Below, piece by piece: positions 1,121 to 59,104 of a stretch of 64,000 nucleotides of DNA (the first letter of the stretch is position 1; the number at the start of each line of letters is the position of its first letter). The position numbers were made by a program, and so were the translations under genes. Where the stretch lies: positions 9,298 through 73,297 of the forward strand of contig JACOXP010000006.1 in assembly GCA_016182295.1 (NCBI GenBank). Reading direction: 5' to 3'. The stretch is from Candidatus Harrisonbacteria bacterium (lineage in GTDB: Bacteria; Patescibacteriota; Minisyncoccia; UBA6257; WO2-44-18). Below the pieces are notes generated by a model. It saw only the letters and a program-made list of their open reading frames with translations, was not told the origin of the DNA and searched no databases.

Positions 1121-1838
1121 ACATTCCATCACTGTTCTTATTTCAGCGTTTAACGAAGAGCAGACGATCGCGGAAGCTATTTTGAAAACTGATGAAGCGT
1201 TGAGAAAGCATGTGATTGATTATGAGATCATTGTTTTTGATGATGGTAGCCGCGATGCTACCGGGAAAATAGCCGAGGACTTGGCTAAGAATAATAATCG
1301 GCTTAGAGTGGTGCGCAATAAAACCAATAAGAATCTTGGTTATAACTTGAGAATGGGCGTGTCTTTAGCTGGCAAAGAATATTGTATGGCTTTTGTTAAT
1401 GCCGACAGCTATCCGCTGGAAGAATCATTTCGCCAGTTTTTTTCAGTTTATGGCGAGAAAGATTTTGTATTAGGTTACTCCGTTAATTATGGAGACCGTC
1501 CTTGGCTGCGAAGGTTCCTCTCCTGGTTGTTTGTGAAAATTATGAATTTTTTGTTTGGTTTTAGGATTAAATATTATAACGGCCCCGTTATTATTAAAAC
1601 CGCATTATGGCGGACGGTGCCGATGACTATCGAAAGTTTCGCCTACATGGCTGAAGTAACCGCGACTCTTTTAAAAAGGGGCATAAAATATGACGAAGCG
1701 CAGATATTTTATATGCCGGAGCGTAAAGGCTTGAATATTTCGGTCTTGCGGCGTAATATTTGGGGTGTGGCTAAAGCGATTGCTTTAATGTTCTGGCGTC
1801 TGAATATAAAGCGTCAGCTTTACGTAAAACCAAAGTAG
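1113..1838 (+). CDS. Family 2 glycosyltransferase (GT-A fold)
   Basis: N-terminal VLISAFNEE...FDDGSRDATG is the classic GT2 nucleotide-sugar binding / DxD region. Start overlaps the upstream ORF stop. Confidence 0.8.
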   Translation: MNKHSITVLISAFNEEQTIAEAILKTDEALRKHVIDYEIIVFDDGSRDATGKIAEDLAKNNNRLRVVRNKTNKNLGYNLRMGVSLAGKEYCMAFVNADSYPLEESFRQFFSVYGEKDFVLGYSVNYGDRPWLRRFLSWLFVKIMNFLFGFRIKYYNGPVIIKTALWRTVPMTIESFAYMAEVTATLLKRGIKYDEAQIFYMPERKGLNISVLRRNIWGVAKAIALMFWRLNIKRQLYVKPK

Positions 1839-52725: not shown

Positions 52726-52760
52726 CAACAACCCCGCCAACTGGCGGGGTTTTGGTTTTT
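52726..52760 (+). terminator. Rho-independent terminator
   Basis: aaccccgcc aact ggcggggtt followed by TTGGTTTTT. Confidence 0.75.
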
Positions 52761-52953
52761 GACAAATTCTATTATGCTTTATAATAAGGTTATGAAATTA
52801 TTGTCGTTGGGAGTAACGATCGCCGGTCTTTGGTTAATCGTCTCCCCTTGGATTTTAGGCTATTGGAAAGTTTCGTCGGCGCTTTGGAGTCAGGTCGTAG
52901 CCGGCGTGGTAATAATGCTGCTGTCTATGTGGCAGCTGGCAGGAAAAGAATAA
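52759..52953 (+). CDS. Small two-TM membrane protein with SPW motif
   Basis: LWLIVSPWILGYW matches SPW-repeat small membrane proteins. Confidence 0.45.
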   Translation: MTNSIMLYNKVMKLLSLGVTIAGLWLIVSPWILGYWKVSSALWSQVVAGVVIMLLSMWQLAGKE

Positions 52954-52954
52954 A

Positions 52955-53191
52955 ATGACAAAAAACATTAAAATTTATTCAACCCCAACTTGTGTTTATT
53001 GCAAGATGGCTAAGGAGTTTTTCAAGAAGAACAATGTCGAATACACCGAATTCAACGTTGCCGAAGATGAGAAGGCGCGGGAGGAAATGGTGCAGAAATC
53101 ACAGCAACTCGGAGTGCCGGTGATCGATATTGACGGTAAAATTACCGTCGGGTTCAATGAATCGGAGCTTAAAAAAGCTTTAAACTTATAA
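52955..53191 (+). CDS. NrdH/glutaredoxin-like small redoxin
   Basis: IKIYSTPTCVYCKMAKEFF (CxxC thioredoxin fold, about 78 aa). Confidence 0.75.
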   Translation: MTKNIKIYSTPTCVYCKMAKEFFKKNNVEYTEFNVAEDEKAREEMVQKSQQLGVPVIDIDGKITVGFNESELKKALNL

Positions 53192-53259
53192 AATGTACGA
53201 TTTAGTAATTATTGGAGGCCCGCCCCGCCTCGGCGGGGCGAGGCTCGCCCGCTTACAAC

Positions 53260-54207
53260 ATGATGTATGATTTGGTGATAGTGGGCGGCGGTCCGGGCGG
53301 GGCCGCAGCTGGAGTTTACGCGGCCAGAAAAAAAATGAAAGTCGCTTTGATAACCGAATCCTTCGGCGGACAATCGGTTGTTTCAGCCGGTATTGAAAAT
53401 TGGATTGGCACGAAGTCCGTTTCCGGCCTGGATTTCGCCAAAATGCTGGAAGAGCATTTGCGAGCCCAGGAAGATATTGATCTTCTCCAGCCGGACTTGG
53501 TTGAAAAAGTTGAAAAAGCCAAAAACGGCTTTACTATTTCCACCAAAGAAGGAAAGAAACTGGAAACCAAAACAATTTTGGTGACTACCGGAAGTAGCCG
53601 GAAGAAACTGGGCGTACCGGGAGAAAAAGAGCTTGACGCCAAAGGAGTTTCTTATTGTTCCACCTGCGACGCGCCCATTTTTAAAAATAAAGTTGTAGCC
53701 GTCATCGGCGGCGGCAATGCCGGTTTAGAAGCCGTTGTGGATTTACTTGCTTACGCCACCAAAGTTTATCTGTTGGAATACGGCGATAAATTAAAAGGAG
53801 ATCCGATAACACAGGAAAAAATTGAAAAAGACAAAAAAGTGGAGATTATTCTCAACGCTCAGACCACAAAAATTTTGGGCGATAAATTCGTCGCCGGTTT
53901 TAAATACAAAGATTTAAAAAGCGGTCAGGAGAAGGAATTAAAGTTAGACGGTATTTTTGTTGAAATCGGCGCCGTGCCCAATATCAGTTTCGTCAAAGAT
54001 TTGGTTAAGTTAAGCGCTTACGGAGAAATTGCCGTTGATCACAAAACTCAGCAAACTTCCCAGCCGGGCATTTGGGCGGCGGGAGATTCCAGCGATGTCT
54101 TATACAAGCAAAACAATATTTCCGCCGGCGATGCCGTTAAAGCCGTTCTCAATATCTACGAAACTCTCAACAAAGAAGGCGGGACGAGGGGCGGCTATAC
54201 CAAGTAA
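53260..54207 (+). CDS. trxB: Thioredoxin-disulfide reductase
   Basis: YDLVIVGGGPGGAAAGVYAAR FAD motif; redox-active CSTCD; second GGGNAG dinucleotide motif. Start taken at the MMYD methionine; the tabulated ORF begins 48 nt earlier inside a GC-rich insert. Confidence 0.8.
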   Translation: MMYDLVIVGGGPGGAAAGVYAARKKMKVALITESFGGQSVVSAGIENWIGTKSVSGLDFAKMLEEHLRAQEDIDLLQPDLVEKVEKAKNGFTISTKEGKKLETKTILVTTGSSRKKLGVPGEKELDAKGVSYCSTCDAPIFKNKVVAVIGGGNAGLEAVVDLLAYATKVYLLEYGDKLKGDPITQEKIEKDKKVEIILNAQTTKILGDKFVAGFKYKDLKSGQEKELKLDGIFVEIGAVPNISFVKDLVKLSAYGEIAVDHKTQQTSQPGIWAAGDSSDVLYKQNNISAGDAVKAVLNIYETLNKEGGTRGGYTK

Positions 54208-55445: not shown

Positions 55446-55925
55446 ATGGAGAAAAATTCTTATTTTAAGTTTGTCGCGGTTTTTTTGGTTATTATCGCTT
55501 TAGGCGTTGGCGGCTATTTTATTTTTCGGGGAGAAAATCAGACGGAAAAAGCCGAGCGAGGGTTCCGGCAGTATGAAGAAGCGATGCGCGCCGACACTTA
55601 CGGAGGAAAAACTCCGCAGGAAACGCTGGATCTTTTTATTGAAGCCCTTCGCGCGGAAGATATCGAACTAGCGAGTAAGTATTTTTTATATGACGACAAT
55701 TTAAGCAAACAAAAATGGGTTGATCGCCTTAACGAAATAAAAAATAAAGGACTTTTAGAAATTATGGCGAATGATATAGAAACGCGCGCAAAAGAAGACG
55801 TTAAAAATAAAATTAGCGAAAATGATTTTAAATTTGTTCTATATGCCGACAACGAGCAGGTCGGTGCTCGGATCGATATGCAGTTTAATACTTATTCCGG
55901 AGTATGGAAAATAGAAAGCTTGTAA
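55446..55925 (+). CDS. Hypothetical protein with N-terminal TM anchor
   Basis: ORF; single N-terminal TM helix; charged soluble domain. Confidence 0.35.
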   Translation: MEKNSYFKFVAVFLVIIALGVGGYFIFRGENQTEKAERGFRQYEEAMRADTYGGKTPQETLDLFIEALRAEDIELASKYFLYDDNLSKQKWVDRLNEIKNKGLLEIMANDIETRAKEDVKNKISENDFKFVLYADNEQVGARIDMQFNTYSGVWKIESL

Positions 55926-58900
55926 TTTTAATCCCGGTTATACTGGGATTTTTCTTTGCTACTCAACCTGCGAGTGCGTACAGTACCAAAACCCACGCTT
56001 TTTTAACTAAAGCGACCTTGGAGTCGTATAACAAGCATTTTGAAAGTAAAATAGACGAAGAACTATGGCCGTATTTGATTGACGGCACTCGGAAAGAAGA
56101 TGAGTTTCCAAGATATTGGAATCATTTTTATGACCCCGTAAACGACAGGGGTCTAGAATCGGGGATTTATGGAAACGGCTATAAGTCTAAAAAATGGGCA
56201 ATGGACGACAAAGCCCAGAAGAGCAGCCTTTATAGAAACGCGGCAACCATCGGGTCAATTTTGACAGCCATTCAGCAGAGAAGCTTGGAAGGTTTTACGA
56301 TTCAGTCAGATTACACGTGGCAACAGGCAGTCAAACAATACATTGCCGGCGATGAGGAAAAAGCGTTTTACGCCCTAGGTCACGTTTTGCATTTGATTCA
56401 GGACGCTTCAGTGCCCGACCATACCCGCAACGATCCCCACCCGCCCATAGAAGGCGGCAGTCCTTACGAGGATTGGACCGAGCGGTTTAATTTGGAAAAT
56501 CCGGATAATGCCGTGCGGCTCCAAGTTTTATATAAAAAACCAGTTATTTTAGAAACTTTGGAGGAATATTTTGATTCCATAGCCAATTATTCTAATAATA
56601 ATTTTTATAGTCGAGATACAGTCGGATTAACTCATGGATATAAAATGCCAGAACCAGATTATTTTGCTCTATACGATGGTGAAAGTTACGGATTTAAAAC
56701 AGATAAAGAATTTGGCGATTACAAACTTTTATGGGGCAACGGAATTTTTGAATGGTCATCTGGAGGAGGAGCGCTTTTAATTGGTTTAGATCCAGTACTG
56801 AATGACTACTGGAACCGCCTTTCTGTAAAAGCGGTTCAGCATGGGGCGGGAGTGATTGATTTATTTTTTAAAGACGTTGAAAAAACGCGCAAAGAATTGG
56901 CAAATATTGAAGAAAAGAAATCCTTCTTCGCTCAAATTGTTGACGCGGTGAGAAATCTTTTTGGCGGTGACTCGGAAGACGAGCCGGTGCTAGAAATTGA
57001 AATTACCAGTTCGGATTTGATCAATGATTCCAAAACAGATCAAACAAATCAAATTGCCCAAATTGAAGAAGCGTCTAGCGTGATTGATAGTATAGAAATT
57101 CTTAATGAACAATTTGAAACCATAGTTGAGCAGGAACAAGTCCAATGGTGCGGATTTACAACTAGCAAATCGCCGACCAAGCAAAATTTAATAATCAACG
57201 AAGTTGCCTGGATGGGCTCAATTTCGAGCGCCAATGCTGAATGGATTGAATTGAAAAACATTTCCGGTTCCGAATTGGAGGTTGCTGATTGGCAAATGTT
57301 TGACGCAAAAGAGGATATCAAAGTAAAACTTTCGGGAAAAATTCCGGCTGGAGGATTTTACCTGCTTGAGAGAACTGACGACGACTCCGTTCCCGGCGTT
57401 TCGGCTGACCAAATCTACACAGGCGCTCTTTCCAATACTAGCGAGGGATTGCGGCTGTTTAATACAAGCTGTGATTTATTGGATGAGGTGATAGCCAATC
57501 CGAATTGGCCGGCTGGAAGCAATAACAATAAACACACGATGGAGCGAATGAATAATTTTTCCTGGAGAAATTATAGCGGCGGACAACAAAACGGTATTTA
57601 TGGAACTCCTAAAGCGGAGAATAGCTCCGGAGAAAATCCAGATAGCGCTAGTTCGGGATCGCCGACTCCCAAATCTGACCCGCAACCAACTTTGACGCCA
57701 ACTCCTACTCCGACTCCGACTCCTACTCCGACTCCTACTCCGACTCCAACACAAACTCCAACGCCAACCCCCACACCGGAGCCAGGACCGACTATCCAGA
57801 AAGTTTTAATAAGCGAATTTCTTTTTGACGCCGAGGGAAGCGACAGCGGCAAAGAATTTATTGAGCTTTACAATCCCGGGGATCAGGCCGTTGATATTTC
57901 CAATTGGTCCGTTCAGCATGTTTCCGGAAGCGGTTCTATAAGCAAGAAAAACTTTGAGACGGGAAATTCTATCGCGCCTAAAAGCTTTTTTCTTATTTGG
58001 CTTGGCAATTCGCCGGGTTCGCCACAAGCGGATATGGTTTGGGCGAGCGGAAGTTTAAATAACACAAACGCCACTATTTATTTGGTTGGCGATACCTCGC
58101 AAATTTCCACCACCAGCCCTGTTTCAGTTGACGCTGTCGGCTATGACGTCAATAATATTTCCGGATTTTCCGCGGGAATGAGTTTAGAAAGAAAAGCACT
58201 TTCTGGAAGCGATTGTGTTTCGGCTCAAAACGCCGGCGAATACTTGGGAAATGGTTGCGATACTGATCAAGCGAACGATTTTGAATTAAGAGAAACACCG
58301 AATCCGCAAAACACCCAAAGCTTGCCGGAGCCGCGCAATTCTCCGGCAGCCGCGGAAGACTTCAATGCTGAGGCGAACAAACTCAGCGTTGATTTTAGTT
58401 GGACTGCCGAATCGAATTTAAATTACGAAATTTACGCGAAAATCAATTCCGATTATTCGCTTCTTGGATCAACCCCGGATAGCGGTTACTCAACCTTAGT
58501 TAAAGAGACCAGTCGGGATTATACCTTTGTCATAAAATCCATAGACAAAGACGGCCTTTCTTCGGAAACCTTGCCAGAAACCATCGTTGAAGTCCCCAGC
58601 TTGATTACCGGAATTGATTTTCACGGAGACCCGAATGTCGCAACCAGCACAAGAATTCAAATCAACTTTGCCGAATATCCGTTCGTGCCGACTATTTTCA
58701 ACAAGCCGAACACCTGGAAAATTTTAGTTTTCTATCTTAATCAAGTTCCGGACAGCGCCCCGAATTACTTAAATACCGCTATTAGTTGGCAGCCCGAAGA
58801 TTTGTCAGGGATATTGTATATAAAATACCCCGGTTGCGCCGGCGGAAATTCTCATCATTATTCTTTGATAATACCGGATGTCGCGGAACGTTGCGGAACC

Positions 58901-59104
58901 GGCGGAGGAGTAATGAACAGAGCTTTTTATTTCGATAAAATAAATGAAAATGATTTAGAACTTGAGGTAATTTCAGAAACGGGATTTTCGGACACTGATT
59001 ATCTTACCGTGGCTTATTATGATTTTTCCACATCTGGGGGAGGAAACCAGGGGTTTAGTTTAGCGGCAATTGATAAGACAAAATATTATTTTCAGGCGGA
59101 TTGA
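55904..59104 (+). CDS. Large secreted multidomain protein: S1-P1 nuclease / zinc phospholipase C-like domain, two lamin-tail domains, Pro-Thr linker
   Basis: Signal peptide. HLIQDASVPDH fits the HxxGDxxxPxH zinc-site pattern of the S1-P1/PLC fold. Two LTD-like segments (LIINEVAWMGS..AEWIELKN; VLISEFLFDAEG..EFIELYNPG). (PT)n linker. Confidence 0.5.
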   Translation: MENRKLVILIPVILGFFFATQPASAYSTKTHAFLTKATLESYNKHFESKIDEELWPYLIDGTRKEDEFPRYWNHFYDPVNDRGLESGIYGNGYKSKKWAMDDKAQKSSLYRNAATIGSILTAIQQRSLEGFTIQSDYTWQQAVKQYIAGDEEKAFYALGHVLHLIQDASVPDHTRNDPHPPIEGGSPYEDWTERFNLENPDNAVRLQVLYKKPVILETLEEYFDSIANYSNNNFYSRDTVGLTHGYKMPEPDYFALYDGESYGFKTDKEFGDYKLLWGNGIFEWSSGGGALLIGLDPVLNDYWNRLSVKAVQHGAGVIDLFFKDVEKTRKELANIEEKKSFFAQIVDAVRNLFGGDSEDEPVLEIEITSSDLINDSKTDQTNQIAQIEEASSVIDSIEILNEQFETIVEQEQVQWCGFTTSKSPTKQNLIINEVAWMGSISSANAEWIELKNISGSELEVADWQMFDAKEDIKVKLSGKIPAGGFYLLERTDDDSVPGVSADQIYTGALSNTSEGLRLFNTSCDLLDEVIANPNWPAGSNNNKHTMERMNNFSWRNYSGGQQNGIYGTPKAENSSGENPDSASSGSPTPKSDPQPTLTPTPTPTPTPTPTPTPTPTQTPTPTPTPEPGPTIQKVLISEFLFDAEGSDSGKEFIELYNPGDQAVDISNWSVQHVSGSGSISKKNFETGNSIAPKSFFLIWLGNSPGSPQADMVWASGSLNNTNATIYLVGDTSQISTTSPVSVDAVGYDVNNISGFSAGMSLERKALSGSDCVSAQNAGEYLGNGCDTDQANDFELRETPNPQNTQSLPEPRNSPAAAEDFNAEANKLSVDFSWTAESNLNYEIYAKINSDYSLLGSTPDSGYSTLVKETSRDYTFVIKSIDKDGLSSETLPETIVEVPSLITGIDFHGDPNVATSTRIQINFAEYPFVPTIFNKPNTWKILVFYLNQVPDSAPNYLNTAISWQPEDLSGILYIKYPGCAGGNSHHYSLIIPDVAERCGTGGGVMNRAFYFDKINENDLELEVISETGFSDTDYLTVAYYDFSTSGGGNQGFSLAAIDKTKYYFQAD
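57696..57778 (+). repeat. Tandem 12-bp (ACTCCGACTCCT-like) repeat encoding a Pro-Thr linker
   Basis: Direct tandem repetition visible in the sequence; encodes PTPTPTPTPTPTPTPTPTPTQTPTPTPTP. Confidence 0.8.

Follow-up and report, generated by a model that had tools for sequence, protein, structure and literature searches.

How does a gene come to begin twice? In the window, by which we mean the whole stretch of 64,000 nucleotides (nt) of Candidatus Harrisonbacteria DNA analysed here, the first nine codons of the thioredoxin reductase (TrxR) gene, trxB, are written once at 53193-53219 (ATGTACGATTTAGTAATTATTGGAGGC, encoding MYDLVIIGG; copy 1) and again at 53263-53289 (ATGTATGATTTGGTGATAGTGGGCGGC, encoding MYDLVIVGG; copy 2), with a gap of 43 nt (53220-53262) separating the two. 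An earlier reading of this DNA, made without database searches (the sequence-only reading), drew attention to the repeated peptide, MYDLVI(I/V)GG, and to the different frames of the two segments. Both are borne out by the sequence and its translation, the starts being 70 nt apart. In what follows, we describe a dispersed family of small, GC-rich, two-hairpin elements in low-GC contigs of Patescibacteria, to which the insert between the copies belongs, and we argue that such an element probably inserted in the first codons of trxB, with a duplicated start rebuilding the gene downstream.

The two copies agree at 20 of 27 bases. Six of the seven differences are at third codon positions and one is at a first position, where it exchanges isoleucine for valine. 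The sequence-only reading described the intervening DNA as a 40-bp GC-rich palindrome. A GC-rich inverted repeat is indeed present (arms 53215-53229 and 53232-53246), and its 24-nt palindrome has a single occurrence in the window and is absent from all of 100 shuffles, but the string quoted is 34 nt long rather than 40, and the gap is 43 nt. Two other points stand as given: the segment is foreign to its low-GC context, with a GC content of 0.85 across 53214-53254 versus 0.38-0.49 in 2-kb windows throughout the stretch, and the first copy's frame ends in a stop at 53270. This frame, open reading frame 1 (ORF1), comprises 25 codons (MYDLVIIGGPPRLGGARLARLQHDV) and is terminated by TGA at 53268-53270. 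An additional in-frame ATG, at 53260, lies just upstream of the start of copy 2. The GGCGGC of copy 2 (53284-53289) forms the right-hand repeat of the element; the left repeat is an imperfect GGAGGC, with one mismatch. Part of the spacer that precedes copy 2, CTTACAAC, is similar to CTTATAAA, which stands immediately before copy 1.

When folded as RNA, the 84 nt from 53211 to 53294 form two adjacent hairpins, P1 and P2 (−44.3 kcal/mol, z = −3.26), and none of 200 shuffles is as stable. In the predicted fold, the 26-nt loop of P2 contains the spacer, both ATGs and codons 2-6 of the new start. Stems equivalent to P2 occur in loci L013, L021, L029, L066 and L121 (loci other than the window are given L numbers throughout), made of different bases and including wobble pairs; in L066, an Ala codon at position 7 lies within the stem. 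Intrinsic terminators consist of a GC-rich hairpin followed by a run of T, and the sequence following P1 is instead CGCCCGCTTACAAC. A simple scan for promoters and terminators found nothing in the insert, and no site within 53190-53300. The best score of Rfam 15 against 52900-53500 was 17.8 bits (threshold, 50 bits), and against nine element-bearing loci Rfam returned tRNAs only.

Is the insert one of a kind? A search for other copies of the GC-rich palindrome yielded one in the 64-kb window, the insert itself, and a dispersed family in metagenomes. The exact-pattern scan of metagenome contigs returned at least 120 loci. Matches in high-GC contigs look like chance, and among the matches listed about 40 are family copies, in different genes, in contigs of 35-55% GC. 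These share traits that were no part of the search pattern, namely the right-hand GGCGGC and the second hairpin. The family consensus reads, in order, GGCGGCC, CGCC[loop 1]GGCG (P1), AGGCT, CGCC[loop 2]GGCG (P2) and GCC, with GGCGGC on either side. The elements are 30-60 nt in length, begin GGCGGCCCGC, and exceed 80% GC in genomes of about 43% GC. Loop 1 adds 80 extra pairs to its stems, versus 19.2 ± 4.6 in shuffled loops, and loop 2 adds 73, versus 17.7 ± 5.1; the extended stems differ in sequence from copy to copy. Because both loops lengthen their stems, and do so with differing sequences, we conclude that the palindromic structure is maintained in the family. The window insert has the family core, GGCGAGGCTCGCC, preceded by CCCGC and a variable stem-loop P1 (53220-53249), and it has the CGCC/GGCG closure of P2 followed by GC(C), with a GGCGGC-type repeat on both sides.

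A covariance model, built from 12 short family members (39 positions) with the long-loop members left out, gives short copies 40-60 bits and the window copy 33.2 bits, P2 of the latter closing onto the GGCGGC of copy 2, and it found additional, more diverged second copies on the contigs L211, L166 and L181. Weaker matches elsewhere in the window (28560, 46040 and 52708) and in L016, L067, L075 and L023 were rejected on inspection as chance. The N-terminal extension of protein P0092, suspected of being a degenerate in-frame copy, proved to be an over-extended gene call in which the element is absent. Scans of viral contigs gave only chance GC-rich matches, with the exception of L087.

That the window's element was added to a formerly continuous gene is apparent from relatives. 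In L214, whose TrxR is 78% identical to that of the window, a small SPW-domain gene, a glutaredoxin-like gene (grx) and trxB follow one another in the same order as in the window, and the trxB ATG stands 1 nt past the grx stop. After removal of 70 nt, the window is colinear with L214, the junction in L214 being uninterrupted. L217 has the SPW-grx-trxB order too, and L215-L217 also lack the element, as do most trxB genes, nearest relatives included. Genomes that possess the arrangement do display insert-like features. Element-bearing genes are scattered over the TrxR tree, each beside non-bearing genes; this pattern could reflect repeated insertion, frequent loss of old insertions or transfer of the 5' region from one lineage to another. 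An insertion would be easily lost, since recombination of copy 1 with copy 2 leaves the gene whole. The start of L214 (693-719) reads ATG TAC GAC TTG GTG ATA GTG GGC GGC; codon 2 is like that of copy 1, and codons 4-9 are like those of copy 2. L214 may be a revertant from which recombination between copies removed the element; we regard this as a lead only. In L215 (323-356), L216 (1469-1500) and L217 (652-676), the spacer between grx and trxB is 25-34 nt long and ends CTTA(C/T)A..ATG, and the proteins begin M-x-Y-D-L; the spacer ends match the window's spacer together with ATG 53260 (CTTACAACATGATGTAT).

The arrangement recurs. The upstream regions of trxB in 80 species-representative loci were scanned for a second copy of the N-terminal peptide, and duplicated starts were found in L013, L029, L026, L027 and L059. 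A search with the motif GCGAGGCTCGCC added L021, L035 and L066. The window, L013, L021, L029 and L066 share the junction, GGCGGC followed directly by CCGC, then a variable hairpin, then the invariant core. Counting the window, nine trxB loci have a start duplicated at the element (the others being L013, L021, L029, L066, L133/L192 and L125, and L035 in part). Nor is the habit confined to trxB. In L155 it is the start of rplU that is duplicated (MSFAIIKTGG, then the element, then MFAIIKTGGKQYIV); in L121, the start of another FAD oxidoreductase; and in L166, the first bases of a tRNA, while at a second site in L166 the repeat spans the last bases of a tRNA gene on the opposite strand. In the start-duplication cases, the intact gene is always joined to the right-hand copy.

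The direct repeat at family copies is usually GGCGGC alone, but ranges from 5 to about 40 nt: 11-17 nt in L116, L156, L211 and L154, and 21-24 nt in L166 and L187. Targets no farther than about 30-50 nt from the 5' end of a gene yield a repeat that takes in the gene start. The two starts are never separated by a multiple of three (0 of 9 cases), and in eight of the nine the upstream frame stops close to the new ATG, between −7 and +13 nt from it. In four, the stop is exactly at ATGTATGA. The window, L013, L029 and L066 have the ORF1 stop at the same +5 position. L125 (1-131) contains a perfect duplicate of 43 nt, comprising 16 nt of upstream sequence and the first 27 nt of trxB, on either side of the element; it starts 20 nt from the contig end and is to be read with caution. 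A diverged, element-like run of G and C precedes the duplicate structure in L125.

Elsewhere, starts of trxB are duplicated around DNA of other kinds. In L026 (2361-2467) and L027 (2892-3001) the break comes after about 20 codons and the unrelated inserts share AGCCCCGTACAATTCC, despite which the two trxB genes are far apart on the tree. L059 (2893-3004) has a third, unrelated insert, and L020 (~1500-1609) has another, with a long hairpin, CCTGCCTGC...GCAGGCAGG. Inserts of several kinds seem to gather in the GC-rich 5' end of trxB, an apparent hot spot. In L036 (~2925-2950), ATATATACGACCTGCCCCGCC, upstream of trxB, resembles a decayed start (ATA TAC GAC CTG) followed by a GC-rich stub, and may be a remnant of an older insertion.

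Where do the other family members reside? About 20 of the approximately 40 listed copies lie within long ORFs and introduce no stop codon, nine of them in the sense orientation and 11 antisense. With no bias in orientation, the copies are more in keeping with a DNA element than with a functional RNA motif. Among the in-gene hosts, identified by Pfam domains, are GatB, transketolase N, alanine racemase, TsaD and a GH1 glycosidase, and in these the copies are in frame. The transketolase domain alignment spans the insert; the alanine racemase copy is located in an inter-domain linker; and the TsaD copy comes just past the end of the Pfam domain, near the C-terminus. At about 24 of 30 loci the two flanking GGCGGC motifs are a multiple of three apart, which is what translation of the insert would predict. 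Two different organisms have copies at the same site in gatB, after DLPPI (L140, 2959-3023, and L211, 3078-3139, both on the minus strand). There, the host coding sequence is complementary to the 5' arm of P2 and co-varies with it, CATCCGC/GCGGATG in one and CATCCAC/GTGGATG in the other; this may be compensatory evolution, or else an inverted copy of the flank made at insertion.

Other copies adjoin tRNA genes, in L166 and L181. The elements at L166 1461-1517 (minus) and 1170-1231 (plus) and at L181 3738-3800 (minus) are situated at the acceptor-stem ends of tRNAs (GGGGCGGCC), with 18-23 nt duplicates of the tRNA end and its flank, and in every case the right-hand side is the one with the intact tRNA. 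Units of 31-42 nt form arrays in L087, L135, L143 and L175. The array in L087 (10700-10793, minus), a contig classed as 'viral' by IMG/VR, consists of 2.2 tandem copies of a 42-nt element unit directly after a tRNA gene, in surroundings that are AT-rich and dense in tRNA genes.

Which of its two starts does the window gene use? Translated from copy 2, the protein matches Pfam Pyr_redox_2 (E = 2e-44) with residue 2 aligned to profile position 1; its N-terminus resembles those of some 80 homologues; and it contains the N-terminal GGGPGG and the CSTC (CxxC) motifs expected of a thioredoxin reductase. Its close homologues are all from Patescibacteria. It is 100% identical to NCBI protein P0001, from a Candidatus Harrisonbacteria metagenome-assembled genome, which is annotated from ATG 53260 (MMYDLVIVGG...). 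Because the Pfam alignment and the N-termini of the homologues fit copy 2, TrxR is most likely made from the second start, at ATG 53260 or 53263.

We think it likely, then, that the locus arose as follows. A small, non-coding, two-hairpin DNA element would have inserted at GGCGGC-type Gly-Gly codons of the FAD-binding motif of trxB, becoming flanked by a direct repeat of its target. At this locus the repeat would span the first nine codons, the start codon among them, and probably extend some 8 nt farther upstream, so that a complete gene start was rebuilt just downstream of the element, from which TrxR would now be translated. The old start, still 1 nt past the grx stop, would open ORF1, which runs through P1 to a TGA that overlaps the new start. 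Ribosomes on ORF1 might melt the hairpins and re-initiate at the new start. Such termination-reinitiation coupling is the most economical explanation we can infer for use of the new start, because the old start retains its native context behind grx, and because translation of ORF1 would have to unwind P1 and P2 and stops on the new start. An effect of the insert on the initiation of trxB translation, which the sequence-only reading had raised, is likewise plausible, because P2 encloses the new start and ORF1 ends on it. Insertions at the trxB site would persist only where the duplication restores a start; this we infer, as we do the element's way of moving. The principal proposal of the sequence-only reading, that a small mobile or hairpin element inserted at the 5' end of trxB, partly duplicated its target and left this footprint, is upheld by the dispersed family, by the uninterrupted syntenic junctions and by the recurrence elsewhere.

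Table 1. Features of the trxB locus in the window, in order of position
Feature	Position	Strand	Remarks
Small SPW-domain gene	52759-52953		Precedes grx
Glutaredoxin-like gene (grx)	52955-53191	+	Pfam Glutaredoxin, E = 9e-20; stop 1 nt before the old trxB start
Copy 1, old trxB start, MYDLVIIGG	53193-53219	+	1 nt past the grx stop; cut after the Gly-Gly codons GGA GGC
ORF1	53193-53270	+	25 codons, from the old start through P1 and the core; TGA (53268-70) within codons 2-3 of the new start
Full element	53214-53291	+	Covariance model 33.2 bits, E = 7.6e-5, model positions 1-39 of 39; left GGAGGC to right GGCGGC
Hairpin P1	53217-53245	+	12 base pairs, one bulged A, CUCG loop; takes in the last codon of copy 1
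Invariant family core, GGCGAGGCTCGCC	53237-53249	+	Sole match in the window at ≤2 mismatches
Hairpin P2	53246-53287	+	CGCCCGCU (53246-53253) paired with AGUGGGCG (53280-53287), 8 base pairs
Spacer, CGCTTACAACATG	53250-53262	+	Core to copy 2; contains the possible first codon, ATG 53260
trxB as probably functioning now	53260-54207	+	315 amino acids from 53260, or 314 from 53263
Copy 2, duplicated start, MYDLVIVGG	53263-53289	+	Joined to the remainder of trxB

Several observations weigh against this account. The element is solitary in the window, and none was found away from trxB in about 509 kb of related loci. No mobilising enzyme was identified, no census of transposase genes having been made, and target duplications of variable length are unusual for transposases. 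Filled and empty sites within one species could not be demonstrated, the nearest relatives being no more than 80% identical. The nearness of the ORF1 stop to the new ATG could be chance, AT-rich gene starts being rich in out-of-frame stops. Two further observations concern the copies themselves. Copy 1 is unlike a decaying remnant: across seven loci, 25 of the codons that differ between copies are synonymous and eight change the amino acid, four of these being exchanges of I and V, and 31 of the 42 base differences are at third positions. This bias is unexpected for a dead remnant, because decay should be even across codon positions. Copy 2, for its part, is unusually alike among distant hosts: third-position identity in codons 1-9 is 0.59, versus 0.41 ± 0.06 for native starts, a value reached by 10 of 5000 resamples, and codon 2 is TAT in 7 of 7 copy 2 sequences versus 8 of 59 native starts. 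In codons 10-20 there is no excess likeness (0.37 versus 0.35). Copy 2 may thus travel with the element rather than being a local duplicate; alternatively, P2 and the ORF1 stop may have imposed their requirements on the sequence of copy 2, copy 1 having been kept by selection.

The former possibility can be stated more fully. The spacer and the first nine codons of copy 2 would ride in the P2 loop as a portable gene start, and the element, on targeting the GGCGGC of trxB, would replace the start that it displaces, much as some prophages have attachment sites that carry a substitute gene end. The limits of the copy 2 likeness, which stops at codon 9, suit this idea, as do the scattered distribution of element-bearing genes on the TrxR tree and the mismatch between the window's left and right repeats. 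It would account for synonymous-only differences between copies, and copy 1 is indeed similar to the start that close relatives have natively (23 of 24 bases for the window versus L215; 25 of 27 for L029 versus L043; 24 of 27 for L021 versus L042). Convergence could also explain the likeness of copy 2, however: the P2 stem requires GTG GGC GGC, and in four of the seven cases it is TAT that gives rise to the ORF1 stop. The empty site in L214 natively has TTG GTG ATA GTG GGC GGC; the spacers are only weakly alike; and the duplicates at the tRNA genes, L187 and L156 are nearly identical to the local flank, which fits local duplication. On balance we consider a portable start possible but doubtful. 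In its most developed form, about which we are similarly tentative, the element would be a self-compensating cassette, its P2 loop carrying a portable spacer, a start codon and the first 7-9 codons of trxB (or rplU), that spreads between distant Patescibacteria, the displaced start being selected as a leader ORF that delivers ribosomes. If so, the cassette could insert at a GGCGGC within an essential gene, and the new host would survive.

Other explanations do without an inserting element, or give it a different role. The hairpins and upstream ORF might constitute a dedicated regulatory leader for trxB, exerting attenuator-like or redox-responsive control of translation. P2 does enclose the start codon, with compensatory changes at codon 7, ORF1 does end on that codon, and several lineages have retained the arrangement; yet the element is also found in unrelated genes in both orientations, beside tRNAs and in arrays, most trxB genes lack it, and the insert has neither an Rfam match nor a promoter-like or terminator-like site. 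We judge such a leader unlikely. The sequence-only reading offered a regulatory hairpin as its alternative; that the insert originated as such a hairpin, evolved for trxB, is not supported, because most family members are inside genes, in either orientation. A little less probable to our minds is replacement of the gene, in which a foreign trxB and its upstream region recombined in, one end was joined illegitimately, and the first 27 nt of the resident gene were left as a stub. Mostly synonymous differences, scattered occurrence on the tree and duplicated trxB starts around unrelated inserts (L026/L027, L059 and L020) would all follow from this, but at least six lineages have one constant junction, after GGCGGC, the insert belongs to a defined repeat family that occurs also at sites other than trxB, and codons 10-20 bear no sign of shared foreign origin. 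Translational bypassing would be a quite different solution: ribosomes would take off at GGC 53217-19, skip the hairpins, land at GGC 53287-89 and make a correct TrxR, the predicted peptide being MYDLVIIGGGPGG. Matching Gly codons flank the insert (GGC 53217-19, and GGC within 53284-89), a stable hairpin begins at the take-off codon, copy 1 has retained its coding sequence, and there are parallels in gene 60, with its GGA take-off and landing pair and 50-nt gap (PMC5462505; bioRxiv 10.1101/2022.08.31.505936). Against this, a bypass would be unnecessary, since copy 2 supplies both an ATG and conserved coding sequence for the N-terminus, the codon after take-off is CCG rather than a stop, and elsewhere the element is in frame, in multiples of three, and evidently translated; bypassing is very improbable here. 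Least credible of all is an assembly artefact, two strain variants of the trxB start joined in tandem. The window does come from a metagenome-assembled genome, and the related case L125 lies 20 nt from a contig end, but the same core and junction recur in independent assemblies, from different projects and assemblers, and the insert has a conserved structure with compensatory changes. Two known kinds of repeat were also considered and rejected: a template/variable repeat pair of the diversity-generating retroelement type, the differences between copies not being confined to adenines, and an integron attC site, there being no RYYYAAC/GTTRRRY core.

With an inserted element as the favoured explanation, how does it compare with known systems? 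It is a small palindromic mobile repeat that lives in genes, and its start-duplicating habit is unusual. Rickettsia palindromic elements are dispersed palindromic repeats that occur between genes and, in frame, in housekeeping genes, to which they add a peptide segment (PMC1779305). The Patescibacteria family is likewise palindromic and in frame in protein-coding genes, although the window copy itself is out of frame and splits the gene start. The Rickettsia elements, by description, are set apart by length and host, being 100-150 bp and specific to Rickettsiales (PMC1779305), compared with 30-60 nt in Patescibacteria; the family described here also has the flanking GGCGGC repeat and duplicates the gene start near 5' ends. 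Repetitive extragenic palindromic (REP) sequences, REPINs and bacterial interspersed mosaic elements (BIMEs) are short, GC-rich imperfect palindromes with hairpin doublets as the unit, which form short arrays and are mobilised by RAYT (PMC3337134, PMC3733652). The family resembles them in its hairpin doublet, GC-richness and short arrays, and differs in that REPs are extragenic and have GTAG or CGTC heads, whereas about half of the family copies are inside long ORFs and have neither head. The gap of T4 gene 60 and the mitochondrial byp elements are structured inserts, short and derived from mobile DNA, that lie in coding sequence between two identical Gly codons (PMC5462505; bioRxiv 10.1101/2022.08.31.505936). 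Identical flanking codons and a structured gap are found at the window locus as well, but not the stop after take-off nor the startless downstream segment. In gene 60 and byp the insert is skipped and the downstream part is without its own start, whereas here the downstream part has a complete start, and other copies are translated in frame.

Some likenesses are more distant. Yeast mitochondrial GC clusters are small, GC-rich, palindromic mobile inserts in an AT-rich genome, some of them in frame within genes. They are GC-rich palindromic inserts as in the present family, but from another domain of life, and we know of no report that they duplicate gene starts. Integrative elements such as e14 or phage 21 in icd, and islands that target tRNA genes, carry a substitute gene end that differs from the original mainly synonymously. 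With these the element shares a target kept intact through a second end copy beyond the insert; they are, however, many kilobases in length, encode an integrase and usually affect the 3' end, whereas here the insert is 43 nt, has no gene and affects the 5' end. Palindrome-associated transposable elements derived from IS200/IS605 have two subterminal hairpins and a short, specific target, and IS200/IS605 elements are not known to make a target duplication. Two hairpins beside a short, specific target are common to both, and strand-specific structure is likely to be relevant as single-stranded DNA; the Patescibacteria family differs in being flanked by a repeat of its target, and no TnpA was found for it, no census of transposases having been made. 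Miniature inverted-repeat transposable elements are a poor match, in that the flanking repeats of the family vary from 5 to about 40 nt and the element has two tandem hairpins, not one pair of terminal repeats.

Patescibacteria have very small genomes, which are thought to be poor in repetitive DNA, and our literature search found no description of such elements in Patescibacteria. A hairpin family resident in housekeeping genes such as gatB, transketolase, alanine racemase and tsaD would be a new instance of selfish DNA tolerated in coding sequence. By creating false upstream starts, spurious short ORFs and extra peptide segments, the elements can mislead gene callers and protein alignments. 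Duplication of a gene start illustrates a way for essential genes to remain functional when an element inserts among their first codons, and the nearly pure synonymous divergence of the two starts raises a testable question, namely whether the old start is still used.

A few features of the neighbourhood remain to be mentioned. Just ahead of the SPW-domain gene, at 52730-52751, is a terminator-like hairpin of 9 pairs followed by TTGGTTTTTG. Downstream, a 1066-amino-acid ORF with a long (TP)n linker, unrelated to the element, occupies 55904-59104; in L216, a gene similarly placed downstream of trxB carries an LTD domain.

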